A stretch of 64,000 nt of DNA from Pseudomonas phage vB_PaeP_TUMS_P10 (OM782452.1); one strand, 5' to 3'; counted from the stretch's first letter, positions 19,934-47,666 are shown. The notes: a model not told the origin generated them from the sequence alone. Made by a program: numbers and translations.

Positions 19934-21495
19934 TGCCGCCTATCACTTGGCGTAACATTGGAACCACGGTAAGCCCCGGCAGTGCTCGTTCGCTGACTGC
20001 CGGGACTACTGGTGTCCAATCTGCATTGGCTTCGCTCGGCGATATCATCAAGCAACAGCAAGAGATGGCCGTGGCGAATGCTGGTGTACAGCGTGAAGCC
20101 AACACGCAAAACTACCTGGACCAGGTTGCTTCGGCTGACCTGAGCCAACTCCAAGATCCTGATTTCGTCGCTGGTTTGGCGGGGCAACGTGATGCCATGG
20201 GCATGCGTTTGGACCGTGCCGCAACCCGTGATGCGATCCTCAACCGCAGGCAAGCCCTGCAAAAGGACACTGTTGCTCAACAGGCATTCGCCGATCAGCA
20301 GGCTGAAGTAGATCAGCGGGGAATCGTAGATGAACTACGGACCCTGGCTGCTCAAGGCCGTGGCCGTGATGTAGATGCCATCCTGGCTGAACGTCAGTTG
20401 ATCAACGAGGGCGAGATCCGTAAGGAACTGGCGGGTGTCCAAGACAACCTGATGCAACGTCAGTACCGGGCAGCCGGTGAACAACGTGCTCAGGCTGCTG
20501 CGGACCGTGCTGCTGAAGCTCACCAGTTGTCCATGACTGCTAGTCGGGAGAACTTGGCGTACCAGCGTGATCTGCGTCAGGACGCAGCACGCGAACGGAA
20601 TGACAACAAGCTGGCCGACAGTGCAGTAATGGAGATCTCCAACCAGTTCCGGGAAAGCCGGGAAACGGCCAATGCTCTGTTGCGGGATATCGGCAAAGAG
20701 CAGGGTCTTCCTACTGACGACACTGGTTTGCCGGATGTATCCCGTATGGATCCGGACCAAGAAGCCAGCTACCGAGAGGCAGTTCAGTCCTCTGGTTTGT
20801 CGGCCAACTTGTCGGCGACGAACGAGAAGCAAGCCTTGGTCAAGACCCTACGTGAGTCTGGTGCTTCGCCGTCTGCTATTCAGCGAGCCACGAAGCAACT
20901 GGACATCATGCAAGGCATGGATGCACTGGCACCTGAAGATGCTGTAAAGGCGGAGAACCAGGTGACTGCGGTCAATGCTGAGTTGGATCGAATCCAGAAG
21001 CAGATGACCCGCAACTACGAGACCGAGGTTGCTCGTAACCCGTTCATCGAACCGAGCAAGACTCCGCTGGAAGACGTTACGAAGACGGTGGAGAAACTGG
21101 GCAAAGCTGGTATGCCTGAATCGGAACGGCGTCTGGTTGCGGATACTCTGGTCGAATGGTCCACCAACGGTATGACTACCGATGGCGGTCAAAAGATCGT
21201 AGTTCCTTCCCAGTTGATCGCCGCTGCTGCTGCATCTACCGATGCCGATTCCTGGATCCGGAACGATGCGAAGAGTTACCTCAAGAACCTACAAAGTCTC
21301 TTGGGTAACAAGGGTATGGAGCAAATGGCCAAGGATGCAGATTCCGTGCGGTCGGACTTCCTCAAGGAGATGACCAAACTGGAAAATGACAAACTGGGTA
21401 ATGCCTATAGAGTAATCAACTCGGCAAAGGCCAAAAAGGGTGTTAGTATCAACCCCAATGACACCGTTGATCGATTGCTCAAAAGGAATTTCTGA
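19933..21495 (+). CDS. coiled-coil virion protein
   Basis: 520 aa; TAATG and TGATG start/stop overlaps with its neighbours. Confidence 0.5.
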   Translation: MPPITWRNIGTTVSPGSARSLTAGTTGVQSALASLGDIIKQQQEMAVANAGVQREANTQNYLDQVASADLSQLQDPDFVAGLAGQRDAMGMRLDRAATRDAILNRRQALQKDTVAQQAFADQQAEVDQRGIVDELRTLAAQGRGRDVDAILAERQLINEGEIRKELAGVQDNLMQRQYRAAGEQRAQAAADRAAEAHQLSMTASRENLAYQRDLRQDAARERNDNKLADSAVMEISNQFRESRETANALLRDIGKEQGLPTDDTGLPDVSRMDPDQEASYREAVQSSGLSANLSATNEKQALVKTLRESGASPSAIQRATKQLDIMQGMDALAPEDAVKAENQVTAVNAELDRIQKQMTRNYETEVARNPFIEPSKTPLEDVTKTVEKLGKAGMPESERRLVADTLVEWSTNGMTTDGGQKIVVPSQLIAAAAASTDADSWIRNDAKSYLKNLQSLLGNKGMEQMAKDADSVRSDFLKEMTKLENDKLGNAYRVINSAKAKKGVSINPNDTVDRLLKRNF

Positions 21496-24400
21496 TGGCT
21501 GACTTTGATCTCGATTCTTTCCTGGATGCGAGATTGGACGCGGAGGCTGGTACTGCACCAGCCTTCGATCCTTCTGCATTCGCTGATTTTGGCAACACCT
21601 TCCCCATGAAGGGAACCCAAAAGCAGTTCAACATCTACGAGATGGCAGAACAGAAGCGCCGGAACATCGAAGAGTCCTTGGTAGGCAAGCTGGGCATCAC
21701 TCCCGGTGCTACCGGTACTGGCCCAATCAACCTGGCTGCTTCCCTGGCTTCGGGTACTTCCCGTGTAGCCGGTCAACTGGTCAACCTGCCCCTGAACTTC
21801 GCTGCTCAGATGGGTCAAGCTGGTGTTTCCGAAGAAGCCATTCAGGCTTACAACCGGGAGATCACTGGTAACCCGCTGGAAGGTGACGATGCCATCCTGA
21901 ACCAGATCGCTGCTGGTGAAGACGGTGTTCAGCAAACCATGCGTGATCGCCTGATTGGTGTTCAGGGTCTTCGTGACGCCGGTAAGGCAGTACAGGACTT
22001 CTTCGACATCTCTTCGATTGTCGATACCACTGACCGTGACGCCATGAGTCGCGACATTGCTGAGCGTACCCAACAGGGTGTAGCTCTGCTGCGTGAATCT
22101 GGTGACCAACTGGAACGTGGTCAGATCCTGGATGCTCTGCTGTCCGGTGCTGCTGGTGCAACTCAGACCGTAGCCGGTGCTGTTGCTGGCACTGCCACCA
22201 ACCCCTCTGCTGTCACTGAGTACACCGTAGAGAACGCGCCTCAACTGGCAGCTGCTGCTGTGTCGGCACCTCTGGGTGTGGCCACCAACGTGGGCTACGC
22301 CGCTGATGAACTTCGTGAAGGCTATCGCGAATACGCTGAAGCCAACGATGGTCAACTGCCGGACCAAGAAGATCGCCTGAAGATGGGTGCCTTCGCTGCT
22401 TCCCTGGCAATGGCTGAACAAGTCGGCGACCTGAGCATGCTGCGGGGTATCCGTGGTGAGGCTGGTTTGCTCCGCTCGACTCTTTCCTCCAGTGCCCGTG
22501 AAGGTGTAACCGAAGGCTATCAAACCTACGGTGAAGCCCAGGTTCGACTGGACGATGCGAGCATCGAAGAGATCGTAGAAGGTGCAGCCATCGGTGCAGC
22601 TGTCGGTGGTTCCCTGAACATCGCTGGCCGTGCTGTACGTGGTGCATCCGGTGCCAAGTCCAAGGCTGAACAAGCCATCACTGACCGGGAAGCTGTAGCC
22701 ACTGCCCGTGAGACTGGTGACATTGCTGACCTGACCAACATCGAGTCGGAGAACTACAACCCGGCTGGTGCGGTGAGTGTGCTGCATGAGCAAGTCCTGA
22801 AGAACGACACTCCCGAAGTGCGTGAATCTGTCATTGCCCAGGCTGACACCATCGAACAGGAACTGGCTAAGCAGATCTCGGATATCGAAAGTGTCCAGGC
22901 TCTGGCCAGTGAAGAAGGTGTTGCTCGTCTGGTTGCTGCACGGGAACAACGTGAAGCTCAACTGGAACAAGCCACCCCGGAAGAGCGTACTCAGCTGGAA
23001 GCTCAGATCGAGTCGATCCGTAACCTGGAAGAAGAGGCTGCTGCCTACACTCCCGAACTGCGTGCTCAGGATGATGCAGAACTCAAGGATCTGAACCAAC
23101 GTCTGAAGGCTACTCGTGAAGCGATCCAGCGTCTGCATACCGATGCTGCGCCTACTGCTCCCGAGGTAGAAGAACTGGTTGCCCAGGCACCTACTTCTCC
23201 GGAAGCTGCTGAGCGTGTGATCACCCTGACCATGACCAACCCGGACAGTCTGAGCAACGAGCAGATTGCTTCCATAGTTTCGGACGAGTCCAATGGCTTG
23301 TCCCCGGAATACCGCACTGCACTCCGCAGCTTCGCTCAAGCCAAGGAAGCCATGGATGAACTGAAGGGTTTGTCCGGTGTTCGTACCGATATCGAAGTCG
23401 GTGGTGATGGTTTCAAGGGCATCCCTCAATACCGCAATGCTGTGCGTATGGCCCTGTCCAACGGGAACATCGAAGCTGCTACTGCTCAGGTAGACCAGCT
23501 GCGTGCCTTCGCAGATACCCGCCTGTCCAAGTTCGCTGCAATCAGCGATGCCTTCGACAAGGTGCAGGGTACCCAGGACTTCATCAACATCATCCCGAAC
23601 CAGGAAACTGGTGTGTGGGAAGTTGCTCCTGAAGGCATGACTCCCCGTCAGGTTCAGTCGGCCAAAGGGCTGCGTGTATTCGCCGGTTCTCAGAAGCTGC
23701 GTGATGCTGTAGCCATGGAAGCTACTGCCCTGGCACGTACTGCTGAATCCCTGCAAGCACTGATCAACGCCGGTCCTCTGACCAACGCTGTACAGGTTGC
23801 TCAAGAGCAAACCATTGCCCAGGAACAAGAAGTTGCTCCTGTAGCTGAAGAGGTGACCCCGGTAGCAGAGCCTACCGCTCAGGTATCCGAAGAGGCTGTT
23901 GCCCAGGAAGCTGAGACGGTCCAGGCGGAACCTGTTCCCGAGGTCGAAACTGGTGAACTGACTGCAATCCGTGAGGGTGCAGAAGTTCGTGGTAAGCCGC
24001 TGGCAAGCCAGGACTATCAGGACACCAACCTTGTTGGTGCGTTCTTCCAGCAATCGCCGGCCAAGCAAGAAGGTGACACCAAGAAGCCGCTGGCTTCGGT
24101 GAAGGACTTCGCTACTGCTGTCCGTACTGGTTCTGCCAAGCTGGCTGAGTTCGCTGGTGTTGAGTCCTTCACTGGTCAGCAACAGTCTGCCCTGAAGAAC
24201 TTCATGGGCTTCCAGCGTATGGCCAAGCCTCTGGTTGAAGCCAACCTGAAACAGTACGTCTCCAAGTCTGGCGATGCCAGCCGTTATCGTTTCCGGGACT
24301 ATGCTCAGTTCCTGGTGAACGCTGATGGCTCCCTTGATGAGAACGTCAGCACTGCTATCGCCTACGCTGCCTACGATTGGATCAACGATGCAGCTTCCAA

Positions 24401-27400
24401 CCTGGTGAACTCCGATGCAGGCATCAATGCCATTCTCGGTAAAGACGTCAGTGCCGAAGTATCTCCGGCTGCTTACGCTGCTCTGGCCACTGTTGGTGTT
24501 CGTCAGGCAACTGCTGCTGCTCAGCTGGGTGCCAAGGTACGAGAAGTCCTTGGTTTGGAAGTACTCCCCAATGCTCCTGTGAACGAGCAAGCCCGTCTCG
24601 AAGCATCCCTGGGTGAGCATGCTCTGCACCTGCTGGTGAAGAGTGGTGCTGCCAAGATCACCGCTATCAGTGATGCTCAGCTGAAGAACCTGATGGGTTC
24701 CCAGGAGAAGCCCAACGCGAAAGTCCAGCACTACTTCCTGACTCCGGTCAGCGAACGTGTGGACGGCAAGCTCCAGGCTGGTCCGCTGGCTCGCCGTGTG
24801 CGTGAAGCTACCATGGGAAGCCAGTCGATCCTGAACAAGCTGTTCGGTACGACTCCTGCCATGATCGAGCCGAGTTTCGAACCCATCGACTTCAAGCAGC
24901 GTAACGCCAAGCGTACTCAGCAGCCGATTAGTTCGGAGCAAGCACGCATCTTGGATAAGGCCGCGAAGCAAGCTCACACTCTGCGTCCTGAGATGTGGCA
25001 GGTATGGGGTAATCTCAGCCCTGAAGCTCTGGCTACCATTGCTGGTGCTGCCGATCTGGAAGGAACCAAGGTTCACAAGGCAAACCGTGCCGGTCTGCAA
25101 GCCAAGTCGGATGGACTGGTTCGCCAGATTCAGAACTTCGGTGACTTCTTCAACCGAATCAACGAAGTGTCCGATCTGGGTACTGAACAGCCTCTGTACT
25201 TCGACCGCTCTGTATGGAAGCCTCAGCGTGTTGGTTTGACCAGCAACCTGATCAACCCGCAGACCTCGAAGATCCACCGTCACATGCTGAAGATGGAAGG
25301 CTGGGAATCCGAGGTCAAACTCGATTCGAAAGCTGACCTGGACAACTTCAAGCTTCGCGTACTGGAGTCCTTCGGCAAGAAGACTGAAGCCACCAACACC
25401 GACAAGGTACTGGCCAAGTACGATGCTACTGTGAACACCCCGGCAATTCAGGGTGGTGTAGCTGCACTGGCTGAGATCCTCCGTGGTGATGCAAGCGATA
25501 CGGTCGCCAACGAATCGGCGATTCTGGCTGCTGTTGCTGAAGCTGGTGAGAACTTCTTCAGCCTGGATGGTTTGGTAGCTCTGGCTCAAGAGAAGATCGC
25601 CCGTGAAGACGGTGCTGCTTCCTTCAAGACCACTCTGCTGGGTGAAGTGGACGGCGTAACCAACGGTCCGATGCTGTCGCTGCTCATGTCCGGTGCCAAG
25701 GGTTTCGAAACCCTGAACCAGGGTGGCTTCTTTAGCCAGACCGATGGTTTCCAGCAGTTCAACGACTTCCACGCTGAAGCCGGTAACCTGGACCTGTACG
25801 AAGGCACCATCAAAGCTGTCCTGGATATCCTGGGCAACAACCCGCTGCTGTCCGCTATCGAAGCCATCACTGGTGAACTGAGCACGGATGACGGCAACGT
25901 ATCGTCCAAGGGCCGTAAGGTAATCAAGCAGCCCCTGACCGCAATGATGTTTGGTTCGAACACCAAGACTGCGGTAGACGGTATGGCTGATGGCTTCATC
26001 GAAACCATCTACAGCAAGATCGAAGACGCTGCCAATGCCAATGATCTGGACTCTCTGCGTAAGACCATCAATGCTGTAAACCAGCTGATGATCGGCACCA
26101 ATGCACAGAAGTGGCCGACCGACATGGGCTTCGAAGCTGCCCTGGATACCACCTTTGATGCCCGTCAGGTAGCTGCTCTGAAGAACAGCTTCTACCAACT
26201 GCTGGGCAAGAAAGTGGAAGAGGCACTGAACGACACTTATGCTGAGTTCATCAGCCGTCGTGATGTCATCAACAAGACCGCCAACATGGCGTTCCAGATG
26301 TACGAAGCTGCCTTCCAAGCCAAGCGTGAGCAGATGCTGAAGACTGCTGACCTGCCTCGTGGCAAGGATGGCCAGCCGTACACCGACTTGACCCGTGAGC
26401 AAATCGAGCAGATCCGCAAGGAACTGAAGCCGATGGAACCGATCCTGCACACTGCTTTCTCGAAAGCCAGTGGTGAACTGGATGCCGGTATGCTCATGGC
26501 CAAGACCCGTCGTGAACTCAACGACACTCCGCTGTACCGCAGTGAAGTTCACTTCGCTGAACCGCTGGAGTTCCTGGATAGCGACGGTCGCAAACGTGCG
26601 GTCAACTCGATGAAAGCCAGTGGCATGACCACGGTCAACGAAGGTCCGGGTGTAGCTCCGTTCATCACGGCTACCCACGCACTGGACTCCTTCATCAGCC
26701 ACAATGCCTTGGATGGTGCCAGCGTCCTGAACATCCACGATGCTCACGGTACTGGTTTGTCCGACATGGCAGAAGCTGGCCGCCGTCTGAACGAAGCTAC
26801 CTTCAAGGCTATGCTGGGTTACTCGGCTGCAAGCGAGATGGTTGACACCTTCGAACGTACTCTGGCTGGCTTCAACAATCTGATGACCGATCCCGAAGCT
26901 GCTGCTGTCATGGCTCCCATGATGCAGAAGTACCTGGAAAGCCAGAAGGCTACTGTTGGCCAACAGCTGGAAGCGATCCGCCGTGTGGCTGAAGCCGCTG
27001 ACACCGACAAGCTCACCATGCTGAGCGAGATGGCTGCCGTCGGCCAGTACGCTACCGAAGGTGGTAGCTACCTGGTAACCGATGCTGACCGCAAGGCTGC
27101 TCAGGATGCCCTGAAACAGGTAGGCAAGTTCAACGAGGAAGCCGAGATCTGGGCTGAGAACGTTGATGCCAATCTGGAAGTCATGGCTTCGGAAGCCAAG
27201 GCAGGTAAGGCCAAGCCTCTGTCTTCGGATTCCGTCCAGACTCTGGCTCCGGCTACCAGCCTGAACACCATGGACCGCGTTATCCGCGAATCCAATGGCC
27301 AGCTGCGGGAAGACCTCCAGCAGGTAGCTTCGGTCATGGAAAACCAGAACATTCCTCTGGCTTCGGCCAAAGAAGTTCTTCCGGAAGACCGTGCAGCTGC

Positions 27401-30400
27401 TGTGGTGGCCACCATCAATGAAAGCACCCGTAGCCTGAAGTCGGTATGGGGCGAACTCGGTCAGGCTGTAACTCCTTCGGAGCAAGACCTCGTTGAGTTC
27501 CTGTCGAGCGAAGGTGTGACTGCACGCAACCTGTCCCAGTACCTGGAGCAACGTACCCAGGATGGCTTCACCAAGAAGCTACTGGCTGCCCTGAGCCGAC
27601 TGACCCGTGAAGATCTGCCGGTGATTATAGTCACCCCCCAGACCGGTCCGGACGGTGCGCTGGGAGAAGGCGTGAGCAAAGCACGCGGTTGGTATGCAAG
27701 TAAGGGCAACTTCGACGCTATCTACGTCAAGTCCCCTGACTTCGTGGAGTCGGGTATCACTGAAGAGTTTCTGGTTCATGAACTGCTCCATACCGTTACT
27801 GGTCGGGTGATTCAACGTGAACTGGATGCCAAGGCCAAAGACCCGAGCCACAACACTGCTGCAAGCCGCATGGTTGACGAACTGGAAGAGATTCGTTCGA
27901 AGGCTCAGGACTTCCTGAATGCCAATGGAACTCTGTCTTCGAAGTACGCCAATGCTGTGCAGGACGTACACGAACTGGTTTCCTGGGGTATGACCAACAA
28001 GGGTTTCCAAGAGGAAGTTCTGAAGGGTCTGGAACTCCCGGCCAAGGGACGTGACAAGGGCTTCACTGCTGGTCTGCGTCGCTTCATCAGTGCCCTTACT
28101 GGTTTGGTCTTCCGTGGTGAGAACACCCCGTCGAATCAGAACGCCATGGGTCTGCTTATCAGCAATACCGCTGGTTTGTTCGCCGAAGCTCAAGCCATGA
28201 TGGCCAAGAAGGACACCATGACTCTGCGTTACGAAGATGCCGTAGACAGCGTGAACCGCATGTCCACCAAGCAAATCTTCAATGCACTGGCTTCGAACCG
28301 GGACAGCAGTGTTGCTCACCAGAACCGTCTGGCTGATGCCCTGGACAACATTGTTGCGGCCCTACATGGACCGATGGGTGCCCTGCGTACTCGCGTCATG
28401 GAAGGCCAGGCTCTGACCAACACCGATGTTGTGATCAAAGCCATGAACACCAACACCATGCCGTTTGCATCGGAAGCTCTGTCGTCCGCCTTCGTGGTCA
28501 GCGATCAAGAAGCCTTCGTGCTGGAGCAGGTAGAGGCCACCATCGACACCGCTCTGAACGGTAACGAGGGTCTGTTCATCCGTGGTTCTCTGGAGAACCT
28601 GTGGCGTGAGGCTCGCGATACCCTGTCGGCTCGTGACTTCCACCAGGGTGACTGGACTCAAGCCAGCCAGCAGGAGAAGGCCATTGCTCAAGAGAAGTAC
28701 GACTTCCTGTTCAAGGTCCAGGCATCTGCTGCTGGTAAGAACAGCTTCCTGGCTCGCTTTGCTGGTTTGGCCATCGGCAGTGAAGAAGTGTTCAATGCCC
28801 TGGGCTTCCGATCGAAGAGCACTGAGCGTGCGCTTGCTGGCATGACCCTAAGCCAGAAGGTGATGGAACTGTTCCGTCGTCTGCTGACCCGTCTGGGCCG
28901 TCTGCACGACAAGACCTCTCCGGGTGAACTGGCGAACAACCGCTTGGTTACCCTGCTGGATCGTCTGGTCGATATCGAGGCTAAGCGTCGTGGTCGGTTT
29001 GCCGAGCGCAAGCTGGGTGCCCTGGATCAAGTCGAACAAGCCATGGGTAACATGGGTGAGTCCCTGCGGAACACCATAGAGCAAGCCTCGCAGAGCACCT
29101 TCTTCACGAACAACAACAGCCCGTTCATCCGTGCTGCTGGTTCGCTGATTGAGACGACCATGGCTGGTCGTGTGGATGGTGTACTGGAAGGCATCAGCCG
29201 ACTGCGTGACGATGCATTCCGTAAGCCGCGTGGTGTGCTTATGGGTGTGCTGGATGAGATGCGTGGCGTCACCGATCTGATGACTGCTGCACACAGCCTG
29301 TTCAAGCAAGCCAAGTCCAACGAGATGGAGCGTAAGCAGCACATCGAGTACACCGTTGCTCAGGTGAACGCTTCCTTCAAGGATGGCGGTGAGTACCTGA
29401 CCAACAAGGACAAGGCTGCACTGACCAAGGTATTCCTGCGGACCAACATGTCTGCACTGCTGGATACCTATGGTTTCGACGGTCTGCGTCAACTGCTGAA
29501 CAACGACAGTGAACTGCGTAAAGAGCGCAGCCAGCTGGAGACTCAGTTGCTTGGTTTGAAGAACGGTGCCTACTACCTTCGCTCGGTGAAGGATCTAGCC
29601 TACAACCGTGCTATCGGCGGTAACGTAAGCCCGAACCTGATGCTGAACACTCAGAACATTGCTGATCTGATTGGGACCAAGAAGGCTCTGTCGGTCAGCA
29701 AGTCTGAAGCCAAGGCTGCCAAGGAAGTAATGGATCTCCTGTTGCCGATGTTTACCTTCGAGTACACCAGTCATGAAGACAAGGTTGCTGCTCGTGAGGT
29801 TCTGCGTACTGAAGCTGCACGCGGAAAGGACAACGGCGTAGAGATGATCCTGAAGCTGCACAAAGGTCTGCAAGATCGTTCGAAGTCCTTCCTGTTCGAA
29901 GGTACTGAGCGTCTGATGATCGATGGCTACACCCCTGACATCTTCGACAACAAGATCGAAGTGCTGGCAGTGGATGCAACCGATCTGGACTACTTCCTGA
30001 AGCGTGGTTACACCCGTGCAGGTAACGTCCAAGAAGACAAAGCAGCTGGTCTGTCCGCTGGTAAGGTACTGGTATCCCGCCGTGGTAGTGGTCAGGTAGG
30101 TTTGCTGACTGGTGCTATGAGCTACACCGGTATGCAAGCCAAGGGTTCCCGTGTTGAGCGCTCTGCTGTGAACATGCTGAGCAACAATCCGGGTACTGCG
30201 AAGAACACCATCGGAACCATCCGCAAGAACATTGCAGACTCGGTTGATGAGATGTTCACCACCGATGCTACCTACGATCCGCGTAAAGCACAGGCACAAC
30301 GTGTTGCTCCTGTACTGGATCCGAATGGAATCATTGTTGATTACCGGTACATGATGACTGAGCACAACCGTGACAGTCTCCTGAACCGCGACAACTCCAT

Positions 30401-31706
30401 GGACCAGGTACTGGGTACTCTGGCTGGTCAGATCGTGGACAAGGTGTCTTCGCATCAGCAGAACGTGGACGTAGTTCGTTCCATGTACGAGCAGTTCCGT
30501 GAGGACTACTCCAACCGCCCGAGCAGCTACATCAAAGTAGGCAAGGACAGCACTGAACCTCACTTGCAGGAACTCTACAACCTGTTGCCCTATGCAACTA
30601 AGCGTGAGATCCGCAATGTGTGGAAGTCGGACAACATGATGATCCCGGCTGACCAACTGAACATGATCATGGGTTACCGTAAGGCATCCGTAACTGGTCC
30701 GTTTGGTTTGGATCCGCAGGAACGTAACGTTGCCCAGCAGGTTCTGGTAACTGTAGCTGAAGCAATCCTGGGTCCGAAGGCTGCACTGCGTCTTGGCCGT
30801 GCTGAAGACGTGATTCAGGAACTGGTACGTGAAGCCAAGGACATTCTGGTTGTGAAGAACATCTTCACTCTGGTGGGCAACATCGTATCGAACATGACGT
30901 TGCTGGCTTGGAGCGGTGTTGGTATTGCCGATGCAGTACGTGCGCATGCAACTGGCATTAAGGGTGCCTTGCAGTATCGGGCAGACAACAAGCGTCTGAT
31001 CCAACTGGTGCAAGCCAAGGAAATTGGGTATGTGCCGGAAGGCGTTGCGTCGATTGACGATGAGATTGTTGTGCTGCGTGATCGCATTGCACGTAACCCC
31101 ATCAAGCCGTTGATTGACGCTGGTCTGATGCCGACCATTGTGGAAGACGTTGAAGCTGATGACAGTCAATACAGCTACAAGTCTTTGCTGCAACAGAAGA
31201 CCGAACGAGTAACCAGTAAGCTTCCGAAACTGGTGCGTGATGCGGCTAAGTTCGTGTACGTGGCTCATGACACGTCCATGTACAAGTTCCTGTCGCAAAC
31301 CACTCAGCTGAGTGACTTGGTTGCCCGTTACACTCTGTACGAGCATCTGATCAACCGCGCTCGTGATCCGCTGAGCAAGGCTGATGCACTGAAGCAAGCA
31401 GAAGAAAGCTTCGTGAATTACGACATCCCATCCCATCGGATGGTCCAGTATCTCAACGACACTGGTTTGTTGATGTTCACCAAGTACTATCTGCGGATTC
31501 AGAAGGTGATTGCACGACTGGTCAAAGAGAAGCCTGCCCGTGGTCTGGCACTGGTAGTGGCCAACCATTTCGTCAGTGGTTTGCAATCTGTGATGGACAG
31601 CAGCTGGATTAACCGGATTGGGCACAACCCATTCCAGAGTGGTCCGTTTGCTTTCCCGAGCAGTCTGAGTGAACTGCCTGCGATCAAAGGTTTGTTCAAC
31701 CTTTAA
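21495..31706 (+). CDS. giant virion-encapsidated RNA polymerase (N4 vRNAP-like)
   Basis: 3403 aa; central domain carries T7-like single-subunit RNAP motifs: A VDGVTNGPMLSLLMSG, B GRKVIKQPLTAMMFGSNTK, C LNIHDAHGTG. Confidence 0.9.
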   Translation: MADFDLDSFLDARLDAEAGTAPAFDPSAFADFGNTFPMKGTQKQFNIYEMAEQKRRNIEESLVGKLGITPGATGTGPINLAASLASGTSRVAGQLVNLPLNFAAQMGQAGVSEEAIQAYNREITGNPLEGDDAILNQIAAGEDGVQQTMRDRLIGVQGLRDAGKAVQDFFDISSIVDTTDRDAMSRDIAERTQQGVALLRESGDQLERGQILDALLSGAAGATQTVAGAVAGTATNPSAVTEYTVENAPQLAAAAVSAPLGVATNVGYAADELREGYREYAEANDGQLPDQEDRLKMGAFAASLAMAEQVGDLSMLRGIRGEAGLLRSTLSSSAREGVTEGYQTYGEAQVRLDDASIEEIVEGAAIGAAVGGSLNIAGRAVRGASGAKSKAEQAITDREAVATARETGDIADLTNIESENYNPAGAVSVLHEQVLKNDTPEVRESVIAQADTIEQELAKQISDIESVQALASEEGVARLVAAREQREAQLEQATPEERTQLEAQIESIRNLEEEAAAYTPELRAQDDAELKDLNQRLKATREAIQRLHTDAAPTAPEVEELVAQAPTSPEAAERVITLTMTNPDSLSNEQIASIVSDESNGLSPEYRTALRSFAQAKEAMDELKGLSGVRTDIEVGGDGFKGIPQYRNAVRMALSNGNIEAATAQVDQLRAFADTRLSKFAAISDAFDKVQGTQDFINIIPNQETGVWEVAPEGMTPRQVQSAKGLRVFAGSQKLRDAVAMEATALARTAESLQALINAGPLTNAVQVAQEQTIAQEQEVAPVAEEVTPVAEPTAQVSEEAVAQEAETVQAEPVPEVETGELTAIREGAEVRGKPLASQDYQDTNLVGAFFQQSPAKQEGDTKKPLASVKDFATAVRTGSAKLAEFAGVESFTGQQQSALKNFMGFQRMAKPLVEANLKQYVSKSGDASRYRFRDYAQFLVNADGSLDENVSTAIAYAAYDWINDAASNLVNSDAGINAILGKDVSAEVSPAAYAALATVGVRQATAAAQLGAKVREVLGLEVLPNAPVNEQARLEASLGEHALHLLVKSGAAKITAISDAQLKNLMGSQEKPNAKVQHYFLTPVSERVDGKLQAGPLARRVREATMGSQSILNKLFGTTPAMIEPSFEPIDFKQRNAKRTQQPISSEQARILDKAAKQAHTLRPEMWQVWGNLSPEALATIAGAADLEGTKVHKANRAGLQAKSDGLVRQIQNFGDFFNRINEVSDLGTEQPLYFDRSVWKPQRVGLTSNLINPQTSKIHRHMLKMEGWESEVKLDSKADLDNFKLRVLESFGKKTEATNTDKVLAKYDATVNTPAIQGGVAALAEILRGDASDTVANESAILAAVAEAGENFFSLDGLVALAQEKIAREDGAASFKTTLLGEVDGVTNGPMLSLLMSGAKGFETLNQGGFFSQTDGFQQFNDFHAEAGNLDLYEGTIKAVLDILGNNPLLSAIEAITGELSTDDGNVSSKGRKVIKQPLTAMMFGSNTKTAVDGMADGFIETIYSKIEDAANANDLDSLRKTINAVNQLMIGTNAQKWPTDMGFEAALDTTFDARQVAALKNSFYQLLGKKVEEALNDTYAEFISRRDVINKTANMAFQMYEAAFQAKREQMLKTADLPRGKDGQPYTDLTREQIEQIRKELKPMEPILHTAFSKASGELDAGMLMAKTRRELNDTPLYRSEVHFAEPLEFLDSDGRKRAVNSMKASGMTTVNEGPGVAPFITATHALDSFISHNALDGASVLNIHDAHGTGLSDMAEAGRRLNEATFKAMLGYSAASEMVDTFERTLAGFNNLMTDPEAAAVMAPMMQKYLESQKATVGQQLEAIRRVAEAADTDKLTMLSEMAAVGQYATEGGSYLVTDADRKAAQDALKQVGKFNEEAEIWAENVDANLEVMASEAKAGKAKPLSSDSVQTLAPATSLNTMDRVIRESNGQLREDLQQVASVMENQNIPLASAKEVLPEDRAAAVVATINESTRSLKSVWGELGQAVTPSEQDLVEFLSSEGVTARNLSQYLEQRTQDGFTKKLLAALSRLTREDLPVIIVTPQTGPDGALGEGVSKARGWYASKGNFDAIYVKSPDFVESGITEEFLVHELLHTVTGRVIQRELDAKAKDPSHNTAASRMVDELEEIRSKAQDFLNANGTLSSKYANAVQDVHELVSWGMTNKGFQEEVLKGLELPAKGRDKGFTAGLRRFISALTGLVFRGENTPSNQNAMGLLISNTAGLFAEAQAMMAKKDTMTLRYEDAVDSVNRMSTKQIFNALASNRDSSVAHQNRLADALDNIVAALHGPMGALRTRVMEGQALTNTDVVIKAMNTNTMPFASEALSSAFVVSDQEAFVLEQVEATIDTALNGNEGLFIRGSLENLWREARDTLSARDFHQGDWTQASQQEKAIAQEKYDFLFKVQASAAGKNSFLARFAGLAIGSEEVFNALGFRSKSTERALAGMTLSQKVMELFRRLLTRLGRLHDKTSPGELANNRLVTLLDRLVDIEAKRRGRFAERKLGALDQVEQAMGNMGESLRNTIEQASQSTFFTNNNSPFIRAAGSLIETTMAGRVDGVLEGISRLRDDAFRKPRGVLMGVLDEMRGVTDLMTAAHSLFKQAKSNEMERKQHIEYTVAQVNASFKDGGEYLTNKDKAALTKVFLRTNMSALLDTYGFDGLRQLLNNDSELRKERSQLETQLLGLKNGAYYLRSVKDLAYNRAIGGNVSPNLMLNTQNIADLIGTKKALSVSKSEAKAAKEVMDLLLPMFTFEYTSHEDKVAAREVLRTEAARGKDNGVEMILKLHKGLQDRSKSFLFEGTERLMIDGYTPDIFDNKIEVLAVDATDLDYFLKRGYTRAGNVQEDKAAGLSAGKVLVSRRGSGQVGLLTGAMSYTGMQAKGSRVERSAVNMLSNNPGTAKNTIGTIRKNIADSVDEMFTTDATYDPRKAQAQRVAPVLDPNGIIVDYRYMMTEHNRDSLLNRDNSMDQVLGTLAGQIVDKVSSHQQNVDVVRSMYEQFREDYSNRPSSYIKVGKDSTEPHLQELYNLLPYATKREIRNVWKSDNMMIPADQLNMIMGYRKASVTGPFGLDPQERNVAQQVLVTVAEAILGPKAALRLGRAEDVIQELVREAKDILVVKNIFTLVGNIVSNMTLLAWSGVGIADAVRAHATGIKGALQYRADNKRLIQLVQAKEIGYVPEGVASIDDEIVVLRDRIARNPIKPLIDAGLMPTIVEDVEADDSQYSYKSLLQQKTERVTSKLPKLVRDAAKFVYVAHDTSMYKFLSQTTQLSDLVARYTLYEHLINRARDPLSKADALKQAEESFVNYDIPSHRMVQYLNDTGLLMFTKYYLRIQKVIARLVKEKPARGLALVVANHFVSGLQSVMDSSWINRIGHNPFQSGPFAFPSSLSELPAIKGLFNL

Positions 31707-31712
31707 AGAAGA

Positions 31713-31741
31713 AGGGGAGCTAATGCTCCCCTTTCTTTTTG
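31713..31741. terminator. bidirectional terminator after the vRNAP gene
   Basis: aggggagc-taat-gctcccct followed by ttcttttt; overlaps the 3' end of the convergent small gene. Confidence 0.7.
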
Positions 31742-31917
31742 AATGCGTTTGCCAGGATCTCCCAGAAGAGGACTCCTATCAAACAGAGGACTATGGCTAC
31801 TGCAAACAGGAATCCAATGATCCTGAAGACCCATGAGGCAACGTAAACGACGAATGCCCCTCCTACGATCATGCCGAAGAAGAGGCAGACGCCGACGAAT
31901 ACCTTTAGGGCATCCAT
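31720..31917 (-). CDS. small two-TM membrane protein (holin-like topology)
   Basis: 65 aa, two hydrophobic helices, lysine-rich C-terminus, AGGAGG RBS. Confidence 0.55.
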   Translation of the reverse strand: MDALKVFVGVCLFFGMIVGGAFVVYVASWVFRIIGFLFAVAIVLCLIGVLFWEILANAFKKKGEH

Positions 31918-31929
31918 CGGGCCTCCTGG

Positions 31930-32274
31930 TTAACGCTGAGCCATGAGTGGCATGCCTTGCTGCATCACTTCCATCATGTGCCCCTGGTCGCCGGCAGCGG
32001 ATGCACGGGACATGAGGAACGGGATGTTGAGGTTCTGCGGGTAGTGACCGATGTCACTGCGGCAGAGGATGCCGCCCGGCATGGAGAAGGCGTAGTAGTA
32101 GGGCAGTTCGTGGGCCAGGCAAGCCTTGTCCAGTTTCTCCAGAAGTTCGGTGACTTCCTGCGGCAACTGGTTGGGGAATTCCAGGTTCGCACGGGTGTGC
32201 TGCTTCTTGTCCACGGCGATAGCCTGGACAACATCACCTACGCCGAAACGGTCATGGGGCAGACGATCACTCAC
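31930..32274 (-). CDS. hypothetical protein
   Basis: 114-aa ORF in the minus-strand operon. Confidence 0.4.
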   Translation of the reverse strand: MSDRLPHDRFGVGDVVQAIAVDKKQHTRANLEFPNQLPQEVTELLEKLDKACLAHELPYYYAFSMPGGILCRSDIGHYPQNLNIPFLMSRASAAGDQGHMMEVMQQGMPLMAQR

Positions 32275-32466
32275 TGGCTTTACTCGTCACTTCTTTCAGG
32301 TGATCGACGACCAGGGTGGTGTCCATCTTGGCGACTTCGACCAGGCCGGCGGTGATGGCGTCGAGGGCGGTTTCCATGTTCTTGCGGCTAATGCCGCTCA
32401 GACTGCCGTTGGTCAGGATGTTGGCCAGACTCTGGGCGGATTCCAAGAGTGCATTGGTATGTTCCA
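32267..32466 (-). CDS. hypothetical protein
   Basis: start refined to MEHTNALL (AAGGAG RBS); the upstream 130 nt of the track ORF is probably untranslated. Confidence 0.4.
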
Positions 32467-32864
32467 TGGGGAACTCCTTGGTTTGAATATTTCGGGGTAA
32501 GGGTGGAGTGCTCTGGTCTGGACCCCGTTGCGGGGCGTGGGGAGGACCGTTCACAACGGGCCAGAGCACTCCCTTATGTCTACGAAACATAGACATAAGA
32601 AAGCCAGCATGAAGCTGGCTATCTTGAAAGGGTGGGTGAACTCAGAGGCTAGGAGACAGGAAGTTCTACGAGGGGATTCCTCTGGTTCACCATTGACTGT
32701 GGCTGTATGTCGTTGGTTGTTGCTGTGTGTGATCACTATGCTATCTATGGCACTGCAAGTCAACAGTAAAAAGAGTCCTACAAGCCAAACCATTACGAGA
32801 ACTGGCTAAAAAGAGAATGAGTTCAGGGAACTCTTGTAGGACTAAGGCTAGGTATTCACTCTTT
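32467..32864. promoter_or_regulatory. about 400-bp non-coding region dense in inverted repeats (cruciform plus hairpins)
   Basis: 12-bp perfect IR ggagtgctctgg/ccagagcactcc (32505-32572) enclosing ccccg-ttg-cgggg and ccgtt-cac-aacgg hairpins; then a 10-bp IR cttatgtcta/tagacataag (32573-32599) and a 7-bp IR agccagc/gctggct (32602-32620); a further 11-bp IR agtcctacaag/cttgtaggact near 32768-32842. Confidence 0.45.
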
Positions 32865-33263
32865 TTACTGGGGACTCAAGTCCTGGGGAGGATCTTGGTT
32901 TTCACGCATGCTGGAACCAGCAATGCGACCATTGCGGAAGTCCACCGCATCTACCGAGTTTTCGGGATACGGATTTTCGCCTTGTTCCCCCAGGAGGCCG
33001 ACACGTACACCGTGCAGGTAGGCAGCCGTGGCATCCATACCGGGACGGTAGGGGGGATTGAACTCCGCATCTGTGGAGAGGCCGAGTTCGGATACGGCCA
33101 GCAGGATTGCGTCTTGGTGGACACCGCCTTTGACCTTGATTTCTGCGATCAGCGGAGCGGTGAAGCCAATGACTACATCCTTGGCTGAGTAGACCGTGGA
33201 GGTGAACTGGAGGCCGCCACCGGTGTGGGTAACGAAGGACAGCAGGTATCGATTTTTCTTCAT
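32865..33263 (-). CDS. hypothetical protein
   Basis: 132-aa ORF. Confidence 0.45.
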   Translation of the reverse strand: MKKNRYLLSFVTHTGGGLQFTSTVYSAKDVVIGFTAPLIAEIKVKGGVHQDAILLAVSELGLSTDAEFNPPYRPGMDATAAYLHGVRVGLLGEQGENPYPENSVDAVDFRNGRIAGSSMRENQDPPQDLSPQ

Positions 33264-33308
33264 GGTTTCCCCTTGGGAAGAACCCCCGGCGAACCGGGGG
33301 CGTGTCGC

Positions 33309-33698
33309 TTAACCGCCGAACAGGCCGGCTGCCGACTTGGGCGCTTCTTGTGCGGGTGCTTCAGCTTGAGCCGGGATCTCCTCGACCGGATTGGCTTCCG
33401 GTTCGGCGGAGGTTGCCGGTGCAGCCTGCGCCTCGGAGGCGGCCTTGAAGTTGCCCAGGTCTTCGGTGACGACTTTCTTCTCGCGCTTCGGCTTTTCGAC
33501 CGGAACTTCTTTCGCCGCCGGTGCTTCTTCGGCGACTGCCGGCTCTTCGCCCAGCGAAACTTCGGCGGTGACGTTGCTGCCGCCCTTGCGGGTGACCGAG
33601 AAGGAGACGTGGGTGTTGGCATCTACCGGCAGGCCACGAGCGGCCAGACCGTCGGTCAGCATCTTGACGATATCGTTTTGGTTCAGAGTGATGATCAT
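33309..33698 (-). CDS. hypothetical protein with folded N-domain and Ala/Pro/Glu-rich disordered tail ending LFGG
   Basis: 129 aa; low-complexity C-terminal half. Confidence 0.4.
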   Translation of the reverse strand: MIITLNQNDIVKMLTDGLAARGLPVDANTHVSFSVTRKGGSNVTAEVSLGEEPAVAEEAPAAKEVPVEKPKREKKVVTEDLGNFKAASEAQAAPATSAEPEANPVEEIPAQAEAPAQEAPKSAAGLFGG

Positions 33699-33708
33699 GG
33701 ATCGTTCC

Positions 33709-34263
33709 TTATGAGAGCAGCTTGAGCAGCTGCTGGAAAGTGGGGTCTTTCAAGCCAACCTCAGCAGCGGCAATAGCATCTGCTATGTGCTCTGCTTTGC
33801 TGGCGACTACCCGTCCGTTCTGTCGAGGCCAGTTCAGTCCGGGGTGTTTCTTCGTGGCCCACTCAATCATTTCCTGCTTGCTGGCCGTTGATGAATTGCA
33901 CGCATGCACCTTCAGCTTGGCAGCAGTGACAGGAAAGAATGGGTAGCCCAGCGCACGCATGTACGCCAGTAGGCCAATGCACACGCCGTAGCTCTTCATA
34001 GCGTCAGCCGATTGGGAACCAACGGGGACTTCTACGAAGATGGCTTTGGCATGGGGAGCAAGTTCAATCAGACGCTCGGCAATCGGCTCGACACGTAGGA
34101 GGTCTGCCGAGTTGACGCGAATCTGCTTGTCCTTGCTTTTACTGGTTTGGATGACCTCGACATGCTTGAACTCAATCAAGCCAGTGGAGGTATCCAGGTT
34201 GCCGCAGGCTATGCCCCAATTACTGAGGCTGGGATCCATGCCCAAGATGTTGATCTTAGGCAT
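33709..34263 (-). CDS. RuvC-like Holliday-junction resolvase (putative)
   Basis: N-terminal ILGMDPSLSNWGIA resembles the RuvC motif I-LG-DPG---G-A; 184 aa. Confidence 0.45.
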   Translation of the reverse strand: MPKINILGMDPSLSNWGIACGNLDTSTGLIEFKHVEVIQTSKSKDKQIRVNSADLLRVEPIAERLIELAPHAKAIFVEVPVGSQSADAMKSYGVCIGLLAYMRALGYPFFPVTAAKLKVHACNSSTASKQEMIEWATKKHPGLNWPRQNGRVVASKAEHIADAIAAAEVGLKDPTFQQLLKLLS

Positions 34264-39335: not shown

Positions 39336-39734
39336 TTAACCCTCGGGGTTGTCTTCCAACCAGCGGTTCAGGGAATCCCTGGCTTCCCTTACGTCCTGGT
39401 GCATCGACTTGCCGCCGCTGCGCTGGCCCAGGTTGAGCAGCTTCTTGCGTGCATGGTCGATGGCACCGGAGTTGTCGCAGGTGATCGGGAACAGGGTGTT
39501 CAGCCGGTACACGTCAAGCCAGGTCCACTCCTTGGGGATATCCCGACGGTAGCGGTTCTTCGGATCCACCTTGGGCTTGGTGTCCTTGGCTGCCGCTTTC
39601 ACGTATTCCTTGGGCAAGCCTACGATGGACACTCCGTAGACCGATCCCATGGAGGACATCTTGTAGAGTTCCCGGCAGAGGCCGCAGGTGGCTGTGGTGC
39701 TGTGATGGTTGTTGCACAGGGGGTGTTTGGTCAT
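39336..39734 (-). CDS. hypothetical Cys-rich protein
   Basis: 132 aa; CNNHH..CGLC possible zinc ribbon. Confidence 0.45.
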   Translation of the reverse strand: MTKHPLCNNHHSTTATCGLCRELYKMSSMGSVYGVSIVGLPKEYVKAAAKDTKPKVDPKNRYRRDIPKEWTWLDVYRLNTLFPITCDNSGAIDHARKKLLNLGQRSGGKSMHQDVREARDSLNRWLEDNPEG

Positions 39735-40156
39735 AGGGACTCCTTCTGTTTGTTGAGGTGGAAGATGGCTAGCTTAGCAGCAGCCATGTAGCGACGGGCT
39801 TGCCGGCTGTCCAGGGACATACCGGAAGCCAGCAGGTCTGTGCTCAGTTGAGGCTCCTTCAGGAGGCTGAACAGGCGCATGGCCGATAACGGCTTCTGGG
39901 AGCCTTCTGCGAGCGAAGCGATGCCCACGAGGACATCCTCTACCACCGGATCAACAAACATGTTGTCGAGGCCCTGGAGGCGCTTTGCATGAGGGTTCTG
40001 TACCCAACGGGTACGAGGGCCGCCGATGGCGTTCTTGTTCAAGCCATGGAAGCGAATGGTATCTGTGCTTGCCTTACCCAGGGAAGCCTTGAGGTTGGGC
40101 ATGCTGTCGATGGGGAAATCGATGACGGGAATGTCGGCTGCGGTCAGCTTTTTCAT
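39731..40156 (-). CDS. hypothetical protein (first gene of this minus-strand block)
   Basis: 141 aa. Confidence 0.45.
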   Translation of the reverse strand: MKKLTAADIPVIDFPIDSMPNLKASLGKASTDTIRFHGLNKNAIGGPRTRWVQNPHAKRLQGLDNMFVDPVVEDVLVGIASLAEGSQKPLSAMRLFSLLKEPQLSTDLLASGMSLDSRQARRYMAAAKLAIFHLNKQKESL

Positions 40157-40538
40157 GGGTAAAACCTCTGGTTAAAAAATGATCACGAAACGGTCTTATA
40201 TATAAAGGGGTCCACCCTCCCCCTCTTGAATTTACATTCAAGCCCCCGGAGGGGGCCGGGAGTCGGGTGGACCCTGGGAAGGTCTCTCCCCTGACCTTCT
40301 CCCCCTACCCTGAGACGGGGTAGTGTCAAGGGGGATCGGCGCCAGCCGCACGCCCCCGCAGACACGGATCCCGTCGAGGGGTAGGGATATTGATTTACCT
40401 ATACCCCTATACCCTACCGGAGTCCGTGTCTCCCACTCGGGCTTCGCTGCGCTCACCGCTCGGGGGACACTACCCCGGTAGGGTATAGGGGGGAGGAGGG
40501 GGAGAGGGTTATACTGGGTAAAACAGGAGGACTTCCTA
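40157..40538. promoter_or_regulatory. 382-bp GC-rich non-coding divergent region with multiple inverted repeats and homopurine/homopyrimidine tracts
   Basis: 10-bp IR gggtccaccc (40208-40217) / gggtggaccc (40266-40275) enclosing cttgaat-ttac-attcaag and ccccc-gga-ggggg hairpins; 17-bp IR cccctataccctaccgg (40404-40420) / ccggtagggtatagggg (40475-40491); agacacgga/tccgtgtct IR; ggggggaggagggggagaggg tract. Confidence 0.45.
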
Positions 40539-41813
40539 ATGGTAGACGTATGTAATCTGAACGGTACTGAGTGTGGTACTGGTTCTTGGAAAGGCCCGAA
40601 ACCGGGTGACCCGAACATGAACAATCTACTCCTGACGGCTACTCCGGCCTTCGGGGGTATCGATATCAACTGGACATGGCCTACGCTTAACCCAGCTGCG
40701 GTCAGTCAAACTATCCTCTGGAGAAGTATCACTCCGAATTTCAACGTAGCTACACGAGTAGCGGTTGTTCAGGGTAACTTCTACTTTGACAGGGTAGATG
40801 TCGAGATCAACTTGGATACCAGGTACTACTACTGGATTCAGATGCTCTCTATCAACGGTACTGAGGGTGAAGTCATCGGTCCGGCGAGTGCAACTGCACG
40901 ACCGCTCATTGGACAGATGATGGATATCCTTTCTGGTCAAATTGATGCTGGTGCTCTTGCACAGAACCTTCGTACTGAGATCGATCAGATCCAACTGAAC
41001 AAGTTGGGGATCACTCAGGAAGAACTTCTGCGTGCCCAGAATGACCAAGGTCTTGCTGTTCGCATCTCTGAGCTTGGTGCAAAGACTGACGATGCACTGG
41101 CACTTCTCCAAGAAGAAGTACGGATTCGTACTGATGCTGATGGTGCTCTGGTACACACGGTTAACACCATGTATGCCGACTTCAACGGGAACATTGCAGC
41201 CATCCAAACCGAGCAACAGGCTCTTGCTACCCAGGTCAGTTCACTGGCTTCGTCGGTAACGACACTGAACTCTACTGTGAACGGCAACTCTGCCTCCGGG
41301 CAGATTGGTTTGGTGACCAAGGTTACCCAGCAGGAAGGGAAGATGGCTGTCATGGAGTCTCAGTACTTCGTGAAGCTCCAGGCAGGCAATCTGGTTGGTG
41401 GTTTCGGTCTGTACAACCAGGGACAGACTATCGAGGCTGGTTTCGATGTGGATAGGTTCTGGGTTGGCCGGGCCAACGTTAAACGGAAGCCATTTATCAT
41501 CGATAACAACATCGTCTACATTGACGAGGGTGCCATCAACAAACTCACCTTCGACAAGTTGAGGGCACAGGATGGAAGTCTTATCGTTCAGAACGGTAAG
41601 ATTCAGGCTAAGTACCTTGAAGCAGACCAGATTGACGTTAGCAACATCCAATCCAAGAACTGGGTGTCGGAACGTCAAGGTTGGAGGTTCTGGGACAACG
41701 GTACTTACGAGCTTAACGGTACTGCCACTTCTGGCCGTACAGTCATCAAAGGCGGAGCTACACGAGTCTATGATGCTGCTGGTGTTCTCCGCGTAATCAT
41801 GGGGGTTTGGTAA
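40539..41813 (+). CDS. tail fibre protein
   Basis: 424 aa, strong AGGAGG RBS, beta-rich N-terminal region, central coiled-coil, first gene of the tail island. Confidence 0.5.
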
Positions 41814-42128: not shown

Positions 42129-42841
42129 TGCCTGCTGGTTTTCAAGTCTATTCCTTGAACGGAAACGTACTCATGGCCACCTCTGATTACAGCAACATGG
42201 CCTATCAGAGGACAGTTCGTCTCCCTTCCAGGAATTACCCGTTCATTCACAACATCGATGTGGTCGGTGAGTACCCTGTTATTGTTCTTAAACAGACTTA
42301 TCACCCTAGTGGCTATGTCTTTCGTGTGGCTGAGGTGAACAGACAGAAGATCAATGCAACTACTTGGCGTATTGGCTTGTGTACAGAGATGTTCCCTGAT
42401 AACTCAGCCTGGGCGGACATTCTGATTTTCGGCTCTGCTGCTGATATGTCTGTAAGCCAGAATGCTGGAGTACAAGTTTTCAAGGCAGACGGTAAGTTGG
42501 CCTTCAGTGATCGACTTCCGTACTTGAGAGTTCACAGTACCCTCCAAGTACCTAACTACGGTAAAGGGAGTTACGAATTCACTGTACCAGCCAACTGTGG
42601 AATCATGGTTACCACCACCTCCCGGATGGGTAAGAGGGGTATTGCAGGTCACGGTGGTGAACCGGGGGAAGTATTTGCTCTAGCTGAGGGGTTGAGCTTA
42701 CTTACCGGGGGTCGTGGTTCTATAGCCATGCAATCCATTGGTGTAACCAGTGAGATGTCTACTTCCAACTGGGAAAACGTATACGGGGGAGGTCCACCAA
42801 TGCTTGTGTTTGTCGATCTCAGTAAATTGGTATACTCCTGA
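42128..42841 (+). CDS. tail-associated protein (MPAG N-terminus paralog)
   Basis: 237 aa; N-terminus MPAGFQVYSLNG. Confidence 0.45.
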   Translation: MPAGFQVYSLNGNVLMATSDYSNMAYQRTVRLPSRNYPFIHNIDVVGEYPVIVLKQTYHPSGYVFRVAEVNRQKINATTWRIGLCTEMFPDNSAWADILIFGSAADMSVSQNAGVQVFKADGKLAFSDRLPYLRVHSTLQVPNYGKGSYEFTVPANCGIMVTTTSRMGKRGIAGHGGEPGEVFALAEGLSLLTGGRGSIAMQSIGVTSEMSTSNWENVYGGGPPMLVFVDLSKLVYS

Positions 42842-42864
42842 CTCCCTTCGAAGAGGATACAACC

Positions 42865-47609: not shown

Positions 47610-47625
47610 GTTTCATCCAACCGTA

Positions 47626-47666
47626 ACCCCCTACAGGCTTGTCGCTACCTGTAGGGGGTTTTTTTA
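47626..47666. terminator. bidirectional terminator
   Basis: 11-bp stem ccccctacagg/cctgtaggggg followed by ttttttt; sits between convergent gene blocks. Confidence 0.65.

Follow-up and report, generated by a model that had tools for sequence, protein, structure and literature searches.

The non-coding gap between the orf69 and orf70 homologues of Pseudomonas phage vB_PaeP_TUMS_P10 is, judged from sequence identity and gene order, the orthologue of the small-RNA locus between orf69 and orf70 of phage LUZ7, and it probably forms a compact transcription unit that acts at the RNA level, is read from the minus strand, and comprises late small RNAs together with a module that sets RNA ends. The locus itself was already known, and it does not reveal a new kind of system; the modest new point, as read from alignments, is the conservation of the 3' module between two genera and the dissection of the locus into modules. 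Phage-encoded small RNAs with known function are few, and this locus is strongly expressed (late in LUZ7), is present in two genera of therapeutic phages, and has parts that are under much stronger constraint than the neighbouring proteins. A conserved promoter/terminator frame, a genus-specific RNA body, and the cross-genus 3' module provide experimental handles.

The gap and its inverted repeats

The DNA analysed (the window) is a 64-kb stretch from a KPP21/LUZ7-type, N4-like Pseudomonas phage (Luzseptimavirus, Schitoviridae). Over 1.7 kb around the gap it is 99% identical to phages PJNP053, KPP21, Ka3, and Ka4 and 89.7% identical to LUZ7, all of which are Luzseptimavirus. The gap (32468-32864, with the A of the minus-strand orf70 start codon at 32467) sits just beyond the convergent virion RNA polymerase gene (3,403 aa, 21495-31706, plus strand), to the right of which every gene is on the minus strand. 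The orf69 protein is 92% identical to LUZ7 gp69 and ~56-60% identical to its Litunavirus homologue, and the orf70 protein is 75.8% identical to that of LUZ7. The orf69 and orf70 products and the next proteins along are ORFans, and the neighbours yield no hint on function. The spacer is 96.7% identical over 395 nt to the LUZ7 orf69-orf70 spacer (LUZ7 42644-43039), with the same flanking genes and with every structural element present. The two differ in that this is a KPP21-type phage whose locus is known from sequence alone, and in 13 positions, mostly in loops or as compensated changes in stems.

An earlier note on this DNA had described a non-coding stretch with a 68-bp cruciform motif and further hairpins, and had favoured an origin, a protein-binding array, or a structured small RNA over a simple terminator. 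The inverted repeats that it listed are all present: the 12-bp perfect repeat that forms P1 (Table 1), with ccccg-ttg-cgggg and ccgtt-cac-aacgg inside; a 10-bp repeat (32573-32582 / 32590-32599); the 7-bp agccagc / gctggct stem, which can be extended to 12 nt at 92%; and an 11-bp repeat (32774-32784 / 32833-32843) with the outer arms AAAAAGAG / CTCTTTTT. Four perfect inverted repeats (arm at least 9, loop 3-60) fall within the 400 bp of the gap, the maximum for any 400-bp segment of the 64 kb, and the gap holds three of the window's 10 repeats with an arm of at least 10, where composition-matched shuffles expect 2.9 per 64 kb. The minus-strand RNA from 32735 to 32468 has a predicted fold of -91.9 kcal/mol (z = -6.2; none of 200 shuffles is equally good), compared with z = -4.0 for the plus strand of the gap. 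The palindrome density is real and beyond chance.

Table 1. Features of the orf69-orf70 gap and its flanking genes, listed in the direction of minus-strand transcription
Feature	Coordinates	Strand	Details or basis
orf69 homologue of LUZ7, upstream gene	32865..33263	-	132 aa; phrog_7212; TAA stop 32867-32865
Terminator structure after orf69	32764..32870	-	Inverted repeats, terminator-like site scan, fold
Predicted sigma-70-type promoter, TTGACT-17-CATAGT	32735..32763	-	-35 at 32763-32758; -10 at 32740-32735
Predicted small RNA, ~131 nt	32598..32728	-	Folds; promoter and T47
T47 homologue, intrinsic terminator	32598..32620	-	Stem AGCCAGC / GCUGGCU, loop UUCAU, tail UUCU
10-bp hairpin H10	32573..32599	-	CUUAUGUCUA / UAGACAUAAG
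68-nt structured element	32505..32572	-	Closing 12-bp stem P1, 32572-32561 / 32516-32505
C-rich linker with orf70 Shine-Dalgarno AAGGAG (32479-32474)	32468..32504	-	Leads to AUG at 32467
orf70 homologue of LUZ7, downstream gene	32267..32467	-	66 aa; phrog_32001

A predicted small-RNA transcription unit

In LUZ7 the orf69-orf70 spacer is presented by Putzeys 2022 (PMC9163698) as a late-infection hotspot of small non-coding RNAs, with reads that are mostly <250 nt and lack coding potential. Three abundant species are named, of which sRNA1 and sRNA2 share a start site and differ in terminator; sRNA3, for which no start site is given, is regarded as a processing product, and the authors leave the role of the RNAs open. 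The same paper describes stepwise termination across gp64-gp69, read-through at LUZ7 terminators that shifts during infection, and activity of terminator T47 in a terminator trap. Lammens 2023 (PMC10204088, Table 1) lists the sequence of T47 with a transcript that ends at 42911(+) and a mean efficiency of 58%. In the Litunavirus phage PEV2 the corresponding stretch carries the GenBank annotation 'ORF67.1, very strongly transcriptionally expressed'. We found no functional follow-up on these RNAs in the literature, and nothing there on an N4 origin. Of the options raised in the earlier note, that of a structured small RNA draws support from the abundant late RNAs of <250 nt that the orthologous LUZ7 spacer gives and from the conservation of the structures on the transcribed strand.

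The first element downstream of orf69 is a composite structure in which an outer A/U stem, CAGUAAAAAG (32870-32861) paired with CUUUUUACUG (32773-32764), surrounds an inner stem formed by the 11-bp repeat (32843-32833 / 32784-32774), which in turn encloses a small hairpin (32833-32819) followed by UUCUCUUUUU. On the transcribed strand the stem at 32843-32774 is followed by the U-tract CUCUUUUUA, the arrangement of an intrinsic terminator, and this U-tract directly adjoins the -35 hexamer on its upstream side. In an alignment of 12 phages three pairs of the inner stem are altered on both sides, one of them being A-U, G-C, or C-G depending on the lineage, and the covariation score was reached in none of 500 shuffles. 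From the U-tract, the terminator-like site, and the covariation of the stem, the 11-bp repeat with its A/T arms is the terminator of orf69.

A promoter scan of 2.5 kb (31500-34000, both strands) returned TTGACT-17-CATAGT as the sole promoter-like site. Its -35 hexamer is invariant in both genera, and the -10 is TAAGTT in Litunavirus with the same 17-nt spacing. Transcription is predicted to start at ~32728 (+/-3), and the RNA would begin with an unpaired, C/A-rich stretch, continue through a 13-bp hairpin (32691-32679 / 32648-32635) and a C-rich linker, and end in T47. This ~131-nt RNA is probably the counterpart of LUZ7 sRNA1, although we infer the assignment of RNA to name, and the strand assigned to sRNA1-3 would follow from T47(+) and the promoter scan.

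When T47 is mapped onto the window its transcript end falls after GCUGGCUUUCU, at ~32598 on the minus strand. The stem-loop at 32620-32602 is followed by UUUCUU as in an intrinsic terminator and is terminator-like on the minus strand only. It shares with LUZ7 T47 an identical 7-bp stem, UUUCUU tail, and position, and differs in one loop base (UUCAU here, UUUAU in LUZ7), the published activity figure belonging to the LUZ7 sequence. The suggestion in the earlier note that the palindromes are something other than a simple terminator accordingly fails for the 7-bp hairpin, which is the homologue of LUZ7 T47, and for the 11-bp repeat, which terminates orf69, and stands for the other palindromes.

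The 5' arm of H10 overlaps the U-tail of T47, such that H10 can form only on read-through transcripts, and H10 adjoins the P1 helix without a linker. Neither H10 nor the 68-nt element is followed by a U-tract (the sequences are GGAGUG and ACCCUUACCCC, respectively), and the 68-nt element, being without one, is on its sequence not a canonical terminator. From a start at 32728 there are ~131 nt to T47 and ~224-225 nt to the end of the 68-nt element, both of which fit the published short and extended versions of <250 nt.

Two folds of the 68-nt element were considered. In the three-way fold two 5-bp hairpins (32559-32547 and 32535-32523) stand inside P1, whereas in the rod a 9-bp stem, CCCGUUGUG/CGCAACGGG (32560-32552 / 32532-32524), is topped by a 3-bp tip and leaves a 7-nt bulge, GUCCAGA (32523-32517). 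The rod is predicted to be the more stable by 4-5 kcal/mol in Luzseptimavirus, in Litunavirus, and in an IMG/VR variant, and LIT1 has the same fold layout (z = -7.2); comparative data do not separate the two folds. The repeats of the 68-bp 'cruciform' are therefore as the earlier note described them, but as RNA the two 5-bp hairpins are predicted to give way to the rod.

A scan of the spacer against Rfam 15 (E <= 10) gave no matches, ARAGORN found no tRNA (tRNA/tmRNA scan) in the window, and a covariance model of the module found only the one copy in the window, with no repeats elsewhere in it. A C-rich motif, CCACCCUU (minus strand), occurs twice, just upstream of T47 (32628-32635) and just downstream of the 68-nt element (32499-32506). 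At these two places Litunavirus phages have, by inspection, CCACCUCCCUUA and CCAUCCCUUAC; we take CCACCUCCCUUA, the one upstream of T47, to resemble the 3' end of 16S rRNA.

Under the reading that we favour, transcripts of the orf64-69 operon would stop at the composite terminator (32870-32764), and the host sigma-70-type promoter (32763-32735) would fire late, with a start at ~32728. At T47 an average of 58% of the arriving transcripts would end, if the LUZ7 figure applies, giving an RNA of ~131 nt that is most likely sRNA1. The remainder would read through T47 and fold H10 followed by the 68-nt element, as either the rod or the three-way form. The H10 and 68-nt module may then set RNA ends, acting either as a barrier to a 3'-to-5' exonuclease or as a processing site, because it lacks a U-tract, abuts T47, and lies where the 3' end of the longer RNA is expected. 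This end-setting would yield sRNA2 (~225 nt) and the start-less, processed sRNA3, and would leave a structured 5' end on the orf70-72 message.

Terminator-ended small RNAs of bacteria include ones that arise as attenuated 5' leaders, and the predicted unit resembles this group in its sigma-70 promoter, predicted unpaired 5' region, internal hairpin, 3' intrinsic terminator, and partial read-through into a downstream gene. It differs in the short U-tail (UUCU) and in a body that is completely different between sister genera. Set against Hfq-type base-pairing small RNAs, the predicted sRNA1 shows a terminator whose tail is short and a 5' region that is predicted to be free of pairing; by inspection it has no CrcZ-like AAnAAnAA motif. 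The complementarity of sRNA1 to the rest of the window, five 11-mers compared with 3.9 expected, is at chance level, and no target within the phage emerged. The module can be compared with hairpins between cistrons that stabilise a message or mark it for processing, for example the RNase III sites of T7 and the 3' barriers of the REP type. These share long, very stable intercistronic helices that could define RNA ends, and the abutting 10-bp and 12-bp helices could by analogy stack; the element here differs in being single-copy and phage-specific. Resemblances to CRISPR repeats, to hammerhead or purine-riboswitch junctions, and to a tRNA-like 3' end were weighed by eye and dropped.

It is conceivable, although we think it doubtful, that H10 and the 68-nt element (~95 nt) represent a new class of structured RNA confined to Migulavirinae, released as the processed sRNA3 and acting in trans late in infection. 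Were this so, such an RNA could be a decoy for a host RNA-binding protein or ribonuclease, and the near-invariant stems and the invariant GUCCAGA bulge would be recognition surfaces instead of serving stability alone.

The best-surviving alternative to the small-RNA unit is a late promoter with a 261-nt leader and an attenuator for orf70-72, in which T47 is a partial, possibly regulated terminator and the 'sRNAs' are functionless attenuated leaders and decay products. The promoter, T47 with its 58% efficiency, and the structured module all lie on the same strand upstream of the orf70 Shine-Dalgarno sequence, read-through at LUZ7 terminators varies during infection, and this arrangement is compatible with most of the evidence for a small-RNA unit. 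It is nonetheless unlikely, as the module is conserved between the genera even though orf70 is not (tblastn with orf70 returned no matches in Litunavirus), the sRNA1 body is near-invariant over its full length within the genus, which is more than an attenuator needs, and no alternative pairing that competes with the T47 stem was found by eye.

Conservation across Luzseptimavirus and Litunavirus

The search for relatives covered IMG/VR and metagenomes, with the orf69 protein and an alignment of proteins as queries, and IMG/VR and bacterial genomes, with DNA patterns. The locus is present in 81 phage records (nine Luzseptimavirus and 72 Litunavirus-like), in one IMG/VR contig, and in one metagenome contig, and among the relatives searched it is confined to Migulavirinae (Litunavirus and Luzseptimavirus). 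Two pattern matches in bacterial genomes, neither of them matched by the covariance model of the module, were set aside as chance. In the other N4-like phages Littlefix, C121, Meara, and RiverRider that model gave nothing convincing at the syntenic spot; the best score is 21 bits, in the C121 intergene beside its virion RNA polymerase gene. Two of the 72 Litunavirus-like records, labelled as Photobacterium phages TEMp-D1 and TEMp-D2 (PP852687.1 and PP852688.1; host Photobacterium damselae), carry the Litunavirus version of the locus. Their identities equal those of Pseudomonas aeruginosa Litunavirus phages, and the host label looks doubtful.

The alignment of 12 phages shows a mosaic, for which 4-fold degenerate sites of orf69 served as the neutral yardstick. 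The 3' arm of the orf69 terminator, its T-run, and the -35 hexamer are nearly invariant. The sRNA1 body is identical at 112 of 113 positions between the window and LUZ7, compared with 59% at the 4-fold sites, and is unrelated between the genera (32-36% identity), with no motifs beyond chance common to the bodies of both. The block from T47 to P1 is identical at 97 of 122 positions between the window and Litunavirus, compared with 36% at the 4-fold sites (window versus PEV2). On these comparisons the locus combines a genus-specific body with a cross-genus module, and both are under strong purifying selection for which the flanking genes do not account. Recent transfer of the module is unlikely, because every one of its loops has diverged while the stems have not.

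Within the module, as represented by 10 distinct variants, variation is found at 10 of 87 paired columns and at 20 of 35 unpaired ones (Fisher p = 5e-7). Only three of the 58 columns in the stems of T47, H10, and P1 vary, and the T47 stem is invariant. The H10 stem is kept with a loop that is replaced in Litunavirus, and one of its pairs is U-A in three variants and U-G in seven. Clade-wide changes in the inner helices are G-C to G-U, U-G to C-G, and U-A to U-G. All clade-fixed changes leave the minus-strand RNA paired and would put C-A mismatches into an RNA of the opposite strand, whereas three mismatches in single isolates (one in DL64 and two in phPLST) go the other way, forming wobble pairs on the other strand.

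The earlier note had named loss of the palindromes in related phages as grounds for abandoning its claim, and almost all the stems prove to be kept in both Litunavirus and Luzseptimavirus. The check for covariation against relatives, which it had also proposed, came out differently in the two parts of the locus: the orf69 terminator stem covaries, as described above, but in T47, H10, and the 68-nt element no pair is changed on both sides and the score is not above that of shuffles. Structural support for the module consequently comes from predicted stability and from the pattern of stem and loop variation.

Other readings of the palindromes, and neighbouring features

The two 5-bp-stem, 3-nt-loop hairpins could also be promoters for phage RNA polymerases, either N4-type early promoters of the virion polymerase or LUZ7-type middle promoters, but this is very improbable. 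Their shape does fit the description of early promoters (4-5 bp stem, 3-nt loop), and the stems lie within a range of 4-7 bp. The candidate early hairpins of LUZ7, upstream of orf1, orf3, and Drc, have a TAC or TTC loop followed by T, however, whereas the loops here read GUG and CAA, or CAC and TTG when taken from the opposite strand. Two such candidates lie 32 nt apart upstream of Drc in LUZ7, where the LUZ7 paper has tandem promoters 33 nt apart. By inspection, neither hairpin in the gap has, on either strand, the combination of a central loop purine and -8G on the template strand that holds for N4, and on the transcribed strand no G stands 13-14 nt downstream from the centre of either hairpin. 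The location also differs, at the far end of the middle-gene region beside the virion polymerase gene, rather than in the left-end early region of the predicted early promoters. In LUZ7 middle promoters the stems are GC-rich and at least 6 bp long. Most Litunavirus variants have changes in the hairpins of the gap that are mismatches as DNA yet wobble pairs as RNA. The resemblance to N4 virion-RNA-polymerase promoters is thus one of stem and loop size, with the difference that the sequence rules do not hold, the genome region is wrong, and the hairpins sit within a larger RNA fold.

The two DNA-level options of the earlier note, a replication origin (or cruciform) and a protein-binding array, lose ground on several counts and are even more improbable. 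The palindromes are perfect and dense, GC content is locally lower (0.445-0.475), and the stems are nearly invariant across genera, as might be expected of such an element. Against an origin, there are no iterons and no AT-rich unwinding element, cumulative GC skew does not turn at the locus, and the locus is present in one copy per genome; an array finds no support either, with only short, imperfect, two-copy direct repeats in a single-copy locus. Moreover, one of the palindromes is a validated terminator (LUZ7 T47), the palindromes are imperfect in most Litunavirus variants, with RNA pairing retained on one strand only, and the orthologous LUZ7 region is heavily transcribed.

The least probable reading is that the region codes for protein, either as an N-terminal extension of orf70 from an AUG within H10 (32596) or as a small protein within sRNA1. 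A 109-aa open frame does run from 32596 into orf70 (32267-32596, minus strand), and Pae575P-3_67, PLST_18, and PEV2 ORF67 and ORF67.1 are annotated over equivalent stretches. However, the two genera use different frames for the same conserved nucleotides (HKGVLWPV... and IRECSGPL...), a 1-nt deletion in phPLST ends the frame at 40 aa, the 10-bp stem buries the AUG, which lacks a Shine-Dalgarno sequence, and the frame of PEV2 ORF67.1 has a stop in LIT1 (by inspection) and no Luzseptimavirus counterpart. The earlier note was right to call the region non-coding, as frames are not kept across relatives and there is no ribosome-binding site; the 80-aa ORF that it mentioned (32551-32793, minus strand) indeed lacks a Shine-Dalgarno sequence and is interrupted in Litunavirus.

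Among public ORFs, the analysis flags PEV2 ORF67 and ORF67.1, as well as the long orf70/gp68 extensions, as probable mis-annotations. The long form of orf70 is annotated in the public records as Pae575P-3_67 and PLST_18 (L008 626-988; L010 672-1004), and by the comparisons above both look like over-extended gene calls. PEV2 ORF67.1 and ORF67 (L003 2591-2956) overlie the small-RNA body and the terminator/promoter region, and neither is likely to be a gene.

In the syntenic position beside the virion RNA polymerase gene, the Pseudomonas phage Meara has three tRNA genes (L033 6322-6552), and Littlefix has two gaps, of 530 and 690 bp, that carry no annotation (L031 5113-5643 and 6917-7602). In N4-like phages generally, non-coding RNA genes may tend to sit where the middle-gene block ends. 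Elsewhere in the window, a 10-bp GC-rich hairpin with A- and T-runs on its two sides lies at 31711-31734, between orf72 and the virion RNA polymerase gene, and is homologous to LUZ7 T50, a terminator that has been published as strong and bidirectional. At 47625-47660 a perfect inverted repeat of 13 bp, AACCCCCTACAGG / CCTGTAGGGGGTT, matches the published sequence of the LUZ7 T32 terminator. A second hairpin-dense, GC-rich spacer of ~380 bp (40157-40538) separates divergent ORFs at 39731-40156 (minus) and 40539-41813 (plus), and contains two inverted repeats, one perfect with arms of 17 bp (40404-40420 / 40475-40491; CCCCTATACCCTACCGG) and one of 10 bp (40208-40217 / 40265-40274).
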